Below are positions 11,597 to 12,475 of a stretch of DNA of 64,000 nt, piece by piece. Source of the DNA: Patescibacteria group bacterium (lineage in GTDB: Bacteria; Patescibacteriota; Minisyncoccia; Phycocordibacterales; Zambryskibacteraceae); NCBI GenBank assembly GCA_038061835.1, contig JBBTYJ010000015.1, forward strand, positions 3,907-67,906, given 5' to 3'. The notes beneath the pieces were generated by a model. That model did no database searches. It had not been told where the DNA came from and saw only the letters and a list, made by a program, of their open reading frames with translations. Numbering within the stretch: the stretch's first letter is position 1; each line of letters begins with the position of its first letter. The position numbers and the translations under genes were made by a program.

Positions 11597-12475
11597 TCAT
11601 TTATTTCTGATTTTACCAAGATTGAAATGTTTTCGATTTACCCAAGCTAGTTTTTTTTCGTCGAAAATTGCACCTCCTTTATGAACTTTCGAGAAATCAA
11701 AAACATTTATCAATTCATCAAGAGTAAAAATTTCCTGCTCCGTACCCGGATTCCAACCCAAGAGAGCCAAGTAGTTAATAATAGCCACAGGTAAATATCC
11801 TTTTTGTCTATAATAATCAAGCGAAACTGATTCCCCGTGCTTGCGTTTGGAAAGCTTTGATCTATCCGGAGCCAAAATCAGAGGGAGGTGCGCATAGATT
11901 GGCCGTGGCGCGTCGATTGCCTCCTGAATCAGAATCTGTCTCGGAGTGTTGGAGATGTGGTCCTCGCCGCGGATCACATGTGTAATCTCCGCTTCAAAAT
12001 CATCAACCACAACCGCTAAGTGATAAAGGGGTTCGTTAAGATTTTTTGCAATAATAAAATCTCCAAGTTCGGTGGTATCAAACTCTACCTTACCGCGAAC
12101 CAAATCCTCAAAAACCATTTGTTTATTAGGATTGCGAAAACGCACCACTTCCCTATTCTCACCCTCTGTCTCCGTCGAAATATAGGCCTTATTGATTTGT
12201 ATTAATTTATTCAAGTGAGATTTGTAAATTTCCGTGCGTTCAGACTGATGCCAAAGCTCGCCATCCCTTTCAAAACCGAGCCATTTGAGACTTTCAAGCA
12301 TGCTTTCTTCATATTCCTTCTTGGAGCGCACTCTGTCCGTGTCTTCTATTCTAACTACAAAATCTCCACCATTCTGTCTGGCAAATAGATAGTTGAAAAG
12401 CGCAGTCCTCACGTTACCGATATGCAGCGGTCCTGTCGGCGATGGTGGAAATCGGGTAATAATTTTTTGATTCAT
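11597..12475 (-). CDS. Glutamyl-tRNA synthetase catalytic-domain-only protein (GluQRS/YadB-like length, no anticodon-binding domain)
   Basis: Class-I motifs [11 protein letters not shown] and KLSKR; 292 aa ends right after the catalytic domain (..WVNRKHF). Confidence 0.75.
   Translation of the reverse strand: [292 protein letters not shown]

Follow-up and report, generated by a model that had tools for sequence, protein, structure and literature searches.

GluRS of the canonical kind carries an α-helical anticodon-binding domain (PF19269, ~150 aa), which is believed to have joined an ancestral catalytic core at a later stage (PMC3927822). For E. coli GluRS, the anticodon nucleotides U34, U35 and C36, together with A37, are strong identity determinants, and the augmented D-helix of E. 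coli tRNA-Glu is also among the major ones (PMC9976931). As the anticodon is such a strong determinant in E. coli, losing the domain that reads it should come at a cost in affinity or specificity. In the work of Dubois, Blais, Huot and Lapointe 2009 (Biochemistry 48:6012), as it is cited in PMC3927822 and PMC2777447, a C-truncated E. coli GluRS is described as remaining specific for tRNA-Glu, and the title of that work, as given in PMC3927822, states that the free distal domain stimulates the C-truncated enzyme. For GluRS2 of H. pylori, tRNA-Gln is recognized via the acceptor stem and the anticodon domain has no role in discrimination (PMC2777447, PMC9976931).

A catalytic core without an anticodon-binding domain is also the architecture of GluQRS/YadB, the glutamyl transferase that acts on the queuosine of tRNA-Asp. 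Structures of E. coli YadB contain a Cys-based zinc site in the connective-peptide region. Our literature searches found no description of a natural GluRS without an anticodon-binding domain in CPR/Patescibacteria. Here, we describe a gene for such a protein in a 64-kb stretch of DNA (the window, 64,000 nucleotides), which is part of contig CAYILB010000002.1 (109,819 bp) of the MAG GCA_964364215.1; identical contigs are present in assemblies from Hainich groundwater well H43.

The window gltX gene encodes a GluRS catalytic core

The gene is located between murG and the gene for an M23 peptidase, and the features of the locus are as follows.

11597..12475, minus strand: gltX without anticodon-binding domain (ORF of 292 aa, ATG start)
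12413..12424, minus strand: HIGH signature, H18-I-G-N21 (codon-by-codon reading)
11843..11857, minus strand: KMSKS signature, K207-L-S-K-R211 (codon-by-codon reading)
11597..11623, minus strand: truncated-clade-specific C-terminal tail, plus stop, replacing the linker into the anticodon domain
12472..13617, minus strand: murG, directly upstream of gltX (PF03033/PF04101 on orthologous genes)
10246..11529, minus strand: coiled-coil M23 peptidase, directly downstream of gltX (PF01551)
11530..11595: palindromic MITE-like element (copy B), filling the gap between the gltX stop and the M23 start

An earlier, sequence-only reading of this DNA had described a GluRS-like ORF limited to the catalytic core, with a HIGH motif (PLHIGN), a KLSKR motif and a 4-nt overlap with murG, and each of these observations is borne out. 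The sole Pfam domain of the 292-aa protein is PF00749, matched to the last profile position (314/314), and Pfam gave no match to the PF19269 anticodon-binding domain. The NCBIfam gltX model TIGR00464 is covered at positions 1–317 of 470 only, and the protein stops 8 residues past the last position that aligned to GluRS cores in a PDB sequence search, placing its end at the boundary between the core and the anticodon domain. What is encoded comprises a Rossmann fold, a shortened connective peptide and a stem-contact fold, followed by a short basic C-terminal tail (GKIRNK) and a TGA stop codon; the protein contains no cysteine. At its other end, the gene shares the four nucleotides ATGA with murG, as the stop of murG and the start of gltX.

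The catalytic residues are strongly conserved. In an alignment of 77 family members, G20 of the PLHIGN motif (residues 16–21) never varies, H18 and N21 reach a conservation of at least 90%, and K207, L208, S209, K210 and R211 are all invariant; further residues of the core vary hardly or not at all. The AlphaFold2 model obtained with the 77-sequence alignment has a pLDDT of 93.6 and a pTM of 0.91. The active-site signatures are intact, as is the fold in its predicted form.

The account that we favor, with moderate confidence, is that the protein is the product of the lineage's own gltX, from which the anticodon domain has been deleted; its core remains strongly constrained and most likely still makes Glu-tRNA, probably as a non-discriminating enzyme that is blind to the anticodon.

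The short gene occupies the position of full-length gltX in related genomes

The order mraY-ftsW-murG-gltX-M23 is found around a 292-aa orthologue (locus L001) and, identically, around a 429-aa relative that has the anticodon domain (locus L003, on a 507-kb contig). Because the full-length gltX of relatives holds the same murG-gltX-M23 slot, the short gene is orthologous to canonical gltX by position, and the cell-wall setting is a synteny inherited across the clade. The embedding in a peptidoglycan cluster, previously regarded as unusual for an aminoacyl-tRNA synthetase, is thus ordinary here, and a functional tie of gltX to peptidoglycan synthesis was set aside for the same reason: the operon position would reflect inherited synteny with tight translational coupling and no role in peptidoglycan synthesis.

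In the homologue search, the closest relatives (74–100% identity) are all 283–305 aa long and contain PF00749 only, whereas relatives at 73–83% identity are 393–459 aa long and have PF19269. The short form is represented by at least 20 distinct sequences of 283–305 aa (74–91% identity), which occur on contigs of up to 115 kb, some of them 76–115 kb; orthologues of 285–305 aa are present on many metagenome contigs. The 50%-identity representatives are mostly GluRS of 430–500 aa, with a few short matches of 317–356 aa that may be either fragments or truncations of independent origin. A scan of GTDB genomes, a collection that does not include the window's own genome, gave at least 8 species genomes that encode the short form (285–296 aa), 3 of them Candidatus Zambryskibacteria of the RIFCS/RIFOXY series, and all 8 share the same end point. 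Contigs CAZYVS010000002.1, JBBDZK010000011.1, JAUSDP010000070.1, MHWZ01000039.1, MHVR01000004.1, MHWM01000032.1, JANWHY010000007.1 and JBBUBT010000026.1 belong to assemblies of the truncated clade. A conserved tail motif closes all short forms; full-length forms read WVNKEHIKLL... at this position. When the catalytic part alone was used to build a neighbor-joining tree, the three length classes (~290, ~400 and ~450 aa) occupied separate parts of it. The truncated GluRS is naturally fixed in many species.

The intermediate length class suggests how this state was reached. The PF19269 profile is covered at positions 13–141 in a 456-aa relative and 19–141 in a 429-aa relative, but only at 61–140 or 94–141 in relatives of 393–394 aa, and the window protein gives no match to it; in the alignment of relatives, internal deletions correspond to the reduced coverage. 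Erosion of the anticodon-binding domain seems to have been graded, from ~455 through ~400 to 292 aa, as though its importance was waning before the domain was lost. Changes specific to the truncated clade are present at the new C-terminus: every truncated sequence (100%) and no full-length one (0%) has E282K, and Q265H and K285N are further changes of this kind. The core carries a net charge of −1.0 in truncated and −4.1 in full-length forms. Comparisons of orthologue pairs gave dN/dS values of 0.05–0.10 where dS was computable (it was otherwise saturated), and dN of truncated pairs is no higher than that of full-length pairs.

These observations bear on the possibility that the truncated protein is an accessory enzyme, with a full-length gltX elsewhere in the genome performing the housekeeping function and the short copy taking a narrower part, for example charging only tRNA-Gln by way of the acceptor stem. 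Against this, the truncated gene is located in the ancestral gltX slot, where relatives have the full-length gene, and it shows no acceleration of rate relative to full-length orthologues; the gradual erosion in sister lineages further suggests that the domain was already on its way to being dispensable in the single-copy gene. The family search also named no full-length relative from a genome known to have the truncated gene, although this is weak evidence. The part of the genome inspected amounts to ~84 kb (the window plus the flanks of contig CAYILB010000002.1), and this leaves the accessory reading some scope, as a genome of Patescibacteria is expected to range from several hundred kb up to roughly 1 Mb. 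A back-up enzyme would also ease tolerance of the loss of the anticodon domain, and the acceptor-stem recognition of tRNA-Gln by H. pylori GluRS2 provides a precedent (PMC2777447, PMC9976931). On balance, we regard an accessory role as unlikely.

The protein belongs to the GluRS family and not to GluQRS

The sequence-only reading had pointed to a GluQRS/YadB-like architecture. This is correct for the domain content, a core without an anticodon domain, but does not extend to family identity. With the 292-aa protein, the gltX equivalog model of NCBIfam (TIGR00464) scores 383 bits, above its cutoff of 289.95, whereas the GluQRS model TIGR03838 remains below its cutoff (216.5 versus 276.7), as do the other GluQRS models NF004312–NF004315 (216.8 versus 256, 196.4 versus 250, 163.8 versus 380 and 138 versus 453). 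The top match in the PDB sequence search is a bacterial GluRS, T. maritima GluRS1 (2O5R, 6e-78), and E. coli YadB (1NZJ) reaches only 6.9e-30. Comparison of the AlphaFold2 model with known structures using Foldseek gave the same result: more than 40 GluRS chains match with TMq of 0.87–0.92, 35–44% identity and an rmsd of ~2–3.5 Å, versus TMq of 0.74–0.76 and 29–30% identity for YadB/GluQRS (4A91, 1NZJ). The 292-aa protein is a GluRS by descent and is GluQRS-like in architecture alone; the model cutoffs, the PDB sequence matches and the fold comparison all led us to reject a GluQRS identity. Source databases label the protein 'glutamate--tRNA ligase family protein'.

A protein of GluRS descent might nevertheless have become a functional analogue of GluQRS/YadB, activating Glu independently of tRNA and glutamylating queuosine-34 of tRNA-Asp, and any GluQRS-like biochemistry in the 292-aa protein would then be convergent. 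The similarity to YadB (298 aa) in domain make-up and size is what speaks for it. We consider it very improbable, given that all five GluQRS models failed where the gltX model passed, that identity and TMq are 41–44% and 0.9 to GluRS cores against 29–30% and 0.75 to YadB, and that the protein shares 75–83% identity and its synteny with the full-length GluRS of sister species. Furthermore, with zero cysteines a Cys-based zinc site as in YadB is impossible, and gene calls for the ~84 kb inspected include neither tgt nor queA. For annotators, the case is a warning that a GluRS core lacking the anticodon domain is not equal to GluQRS.

No separately encoded anticodon-binding domain was found in the sequence inspected

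A further explanation is that the GluRS is split, with the anticodon-binding domain encoded elsewhere and joining the core in trans. The sequence-only reading had raised this option too, and the searches do not support it. Nine full-length relatives, run against the 64-kb window in every frame with tblastn, detected no anticodon-domain CDS and no second gltX; matches beyond the known gltX were at chance level in the window (E ≥ 0.3). In nine orthologous loci (L001, L010–L015, L017 and L018), the gltX stop abuts or overlaps the M23 start (AAATGA/A...), so that there is no room for an adjacent remnant of the domain, and the gltX neighborhoods of nine truncated-lineage loci contain no separate gene for it.

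Proteins consisting of the anticodon domain only do exist in the protein database and could be taken in favor of a split enzyme, as could the title that PMC3927822 gives for Dubois et al. 2009; the AlaRS of the window, which also appears cut to its catalytic part, might be read in the same direction. A profile search for the anticodon domain returned 879 proteins, and all 120 that were listed are shorter than 300 aa. Of three that were checked, one is a fragment with which a short contig begins, the M23 gene coming directly after it as in the full-length locus, and two are from the long-read assembly ERZ1286166, in which ftsW, murG, gltX and M23 are all frameshifted. The free-standing proteins checked are thus accounted for as a contig-end fragment and frameshift products, and a split GluRS is, in our view, very unlikely. 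We also considered a free YqeY protein as a tRNA-binding helper in trans, which would be speculation only; the YqeY domain of D. radiodurans GlnRS acts only in cis (PMC1865053).

The end point of the protein is genuine

Apart from its short length, nothing favors a pseudogene in decay or an artefact of assembly or gene calling, and we dismiss this as extremely improbable: assemblies made independently, from different sites and by different methods, have the same end point, as do orthologues of 283–305 aa, dN/dS is ~0.05–0.1, the catalytic motifs are intact and the fold is confidently predicted. The artefact envisaged in the sequence-only reading is thereby excluded. Recoding or read-through of the TGA stop is not the explanation either, as the gltX orthologue in locus L016 has the same end point with a TAA stop, and translation table 11 gives full-length conserved housekeeping genes across the window.

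A palindromic repeat at the gltX stop codon

The sequence-only reading had placed a MITE copy at the stop of gltX, and this proved to be a 65-nt palindrome (11530-11594) with a target-site duplication and an empty site in relatives. The arms of copy B are CCCGTTAGAAGTT and AACTTCTAACGGG, and the element folds at −29.3 kcal/mol (z = −5.8); the arm motif has 7 matches in the window, against 0.09 expected. Copy B is inserted exactly at the former ATGA overlap of the gltX stop and the M23 start and is flanked by duplicated ATGAA (TTCAT on the plus strand, at 11525-11529 and 11596-11600). At orthologous loci the empty site reads AAATGAA and the junction is uninterrupted.

The repeat family comprises four copies of 65–77 nt in the window, with conserved arms of 13–15 nt and no coding capacity. 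All four lie where the stop of one minus-strand gene meets the start of the next, each with duplicated ATGAA(T) on its flanks, and copies are also present in loci L012 and L017. The interiors of the copies differ from one another, which is unusual for young MITEs. A Y1 transposase gene at 3066-3743 has no hairpin of the repeat family at its flanks, and a link between the family and this transposase is therefore unsupported.

As a separate observation, the AlaRS encoded in the window is only 431 aa long, corresponding to the catalytic part, and the ORF after it (443 aa) has no detectable homology.

A model for tRNA selection by the truncated GluRS

Returning to the favored account, in which the lineage's own gltX has lost its anticodon domain, the 292-aa GluRS probably selects its tRNA without reading the anticodon. 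Two further features, one in the window and one beyond it, are relevant.

20676-21950: archaeal-type non-discriminating AspRS (NF003483, 409.7 against a cutoff of 353)
L006 16364-16435: tRNA-Glu(CUC), on the same contig, ~4 kb past the low-coordinate end of the window

In the proposed mechanism, Glu-tRNA would be made at the acceptor end by the intact three-domain catalytic core, and the tRNA would be picked only via contacts that the core can reach. These would lie in the acceptor stem and in the 'augmented D-helix' (U11-A24, U13-G22:A46, no residue 47). The tRNA-Glu(CUC), which looks like a cognate substrate, has a GUCU/GGAC D-stem (U11-A24, U13-G22), A46 and a 4-nt variable loop, meaning that residue 47 is not present, and these features are the augmented D-helix determinants that are major for E. 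coli tRNA-Glu (PMC9976931). The more basic surface of the core and the basic C-terminal tail may recover part of the affinity that was lost with the domain.

The presence of an archaeal-type non-discriminating AspRS indicates that GatCAB is presumably in use, and an anticodon-blind GluRS, unable to read position 36, would also act as a non-discriminating enzyme on tRNA-Gln and charge it for GatCAB. Neither GatCAB nor tRNA-Gln was seen in the ~84 kb inspected, and it is from the AspRS type alone that we infer a non-discriminating role for the 292-aa GluRS.

Implications of a GluRS without an anticodon-binding domain

We judge the chances to be evenly balanced that a whole Zambryskibacteria-like clade has the 292-aa protein as its one GluRS, in which case Glu identity and the first step towards Gln-tRNA would both be achieved without anticodon reading by a protein, through the acceptor stem and augmented D-helix only. 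If so, the enzyme would parallel, in natural and evolutionarily stable form, the engineered C-truncated GluRS, and would be a living example of the proposed Glx-tRNA synthetase ancestor that preceded the anticodon domain, reached secondarily by stepwise erosion. A natural GluRS without the domain is a ready system in which to measure the specificity delivered by the core alone, and it opens the question of how the cell distinguishes tRNA-Glu, tRNA-Gln and tRNA-Asp when the anticodon is not read. The gene also shows the extent to which genome streamlining in Patescibacteria can trim essential translation enzymes, the AlaRS also having a reduced appearance.

Comparison with known GluRS and GluQRS enzymes

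The closest structural counterparts are canonical bacterial GluRS, especially the non-discriminating ones (T. maritima 2O5R/3AFH/3AL0 and T. elongatus 2CFO), which match over all 292 aa with 41–44% identity and TMq of ~0.9, the canonical anticodon-binding domain being the part that the window protein is without. Relative to T. maritima GluRS1, it also has ~38 aa fewer in the connective-peptide/zinc region (residues 100–107 of the query versus 117–162 of the chain), and the region corresponding to the zinc region of YadB is shortened. The short connective peptide is common to the 292-aa protein and its full-length relatives in the alignment, and it is found in M. fumariolicum GluRS (8JPV) too, which aligns with the 292-aa protein in one stretch.

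GluQRS/YadB (E. coli, 1NZJ and 4A91) is alike in domain make-up and size but is a distinct and far older lineage, whereas the 292-aa protein stems from the local gltX in Zambryskibacteria-like Patescibacteria. H. pylori GluRS2 differs in another way, as it keeps its anticodon domain and coexists with GluRS1. The engineered C-truncated E. coli GluRS, as it is described in the papers that cite it, is likewise a core without the distal anticodon-binding part, and the natural end of the 292-aa protein aligns to approximately residue 312–319 of E. coli GluRS (8I9I). The E. coli protein, however, is by the same descriptions a laboratory construct, whereas the truncated GluRS described here is natural, is fixed in many species and bears substitutions that are specific to its clade.

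Variation of GluRS in related genomes

Among the sister lineages, several GluRS proteins (P0018, P0026, P0078, P0096 and others; gltX loci L013, L019 and L020) carry a partly eroded anticodon-binding domain: they are 393–412 aa long, with PF19269 kept over the last third to half only, and are intermediates between the ~455-aa and 292-aa forms. In some truncated orthologues (P0010, at locus L010, and P0113, at locus L014), the ~45 N-terminal residues form a distinct block, which suggests recombination between GluRS alleles of the clade. In two long-read contigs of ENA assembly ERZ1286166 (L004 and L005), ftsW, murG, gltX and the gene for the M23 peptidase are each broken into pieces, and these split genes give rise to spurious 'stand-alone anticodon-domain' entries in protein databases.

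Palindromic elements at gene junctions

The stop codon of gltX is adjoined by one copy (B) of a family of non-coding palindromic elements of 65–77 nt, for which conserved arms of 13–15 nt (ATCCCGTTAGAAG...CTTCTAACGGGAT) enclose variable interiors.

9908-9972: palindromic element, copy A
11530-11594: palindromic element, copy B
13618-13693: palindromic element, copy C
18690-18766: palindromic element, copy D
L012 (gltX locus of a relative) 8448-8523: palindromic element
L017 (gltX locus of a relative) 7047: single arm of the element

Of the four copies in the window, B, C and D exactly fill the stop-to-ATG gap between consecutive minus-strand genes; copy A lies 3' of the stop codon of an 80-aa ORF (9975-10217), and no gene is called at the ATG that comes after it (9905-9907). 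The elements are bordered on both sides by a duplicated ATGAA(T), or by a GCAT-type duplication at copy C, and empty sites are present in orthologous loci. The insertion site was a former ATGA stop/start overlap, with both codons regenerated by the insertion. As the end of the hairpin abuts the downstream start codon and a U-run is absent, the element is not a typical terminator. A link between the repeat family and the IS200/IS605-type Y1 transposase gene of the window (3066-3743, plus strand; PF01797) is unsupported, because no copy of the element arms was found in the flanks of that gene.

Asparagine-synthase-type gene in the cell-wall cluster

15890-17734, minus strand: glutamine-hydrolysing asparagine-synthase-type protein, 614 aa, inside the cell-wall cluster

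In the window this gene separates mraY from the gene for the S11 D-Ala-D-Ala carboxypeptidase. In L003 (the locus with the 429-aa full-length GluRS) it lies upstream of the segment from the S11 peptidase gene to mraY, and L001 (the locus with a 292-aa orthologue) lacks it. Its product may serve in amidation of peptidoglycan precursors, not in asparagine synthesis.

Other aminoacyl-tRNA synthetases and tRNA-Glu

20676-21950, minus strand: archaeal-type non-discriminating AspRS, 424 aa (NF003483)
21947-22915: class Ib (Trp/Tyr-type) synthetase, 322 aa; precedes and overlaps the AspRS gene
38867-40198, minus strand: 443-aa ORF adjoining AlaRS
40208-41503, minus strand: AlaRS, 431 aa, with partial PF01411 and TIGR00344 matches
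L006 (the window's own contig, reaching beyond it) 13440-13886: free-standing YqeY-domain protein, 148 aa (PF09424, 1.3e-36), ~1 kb past the low-coordinate end of the window
L006 16364-16435: tRNA-Glu(CUC), ~4 kb past the same end

The AlaRS match, which scores under the NCBIfam cutoffs, stops at position 434 of 552 in PF01411 and 431 of 847 in TIGR00344 (both from position 1), so the editing and C-terminal domains are missing. The adjoining 443-aa ORF gave no match in Pfam, NCBIfam or PDB (by sequence), and the pair could represent a second reduced or split synthetase of the same genome. On the aspartate--tRNA(Asn) ligase model NF003483 (cutoff 353) the AspRS scores 409.7 bits, an assignment that implies a GatCAB transamidation route.

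The YqeY-domain protein is a relative of the GatB tail that binds tRNA. A YqeY domain fused to the GlnRS of D. radiodurans raises tRNA affinity, in cis only (PMC1865053); a helper role for the free protein here is pure speculation. The tRNA-Glu(CUC) has G1-C72 and G2-U71 pairs; its D-stem is GUCU/GGAC, residue 46 is A, and the variable loop is 4 nt long. Augmented-D-helix identity features are known from E. coli tRNA-Glu (PMC9976931), and the D-stem, A46 and variable loop of the tRNA on this contig are the same as those features.
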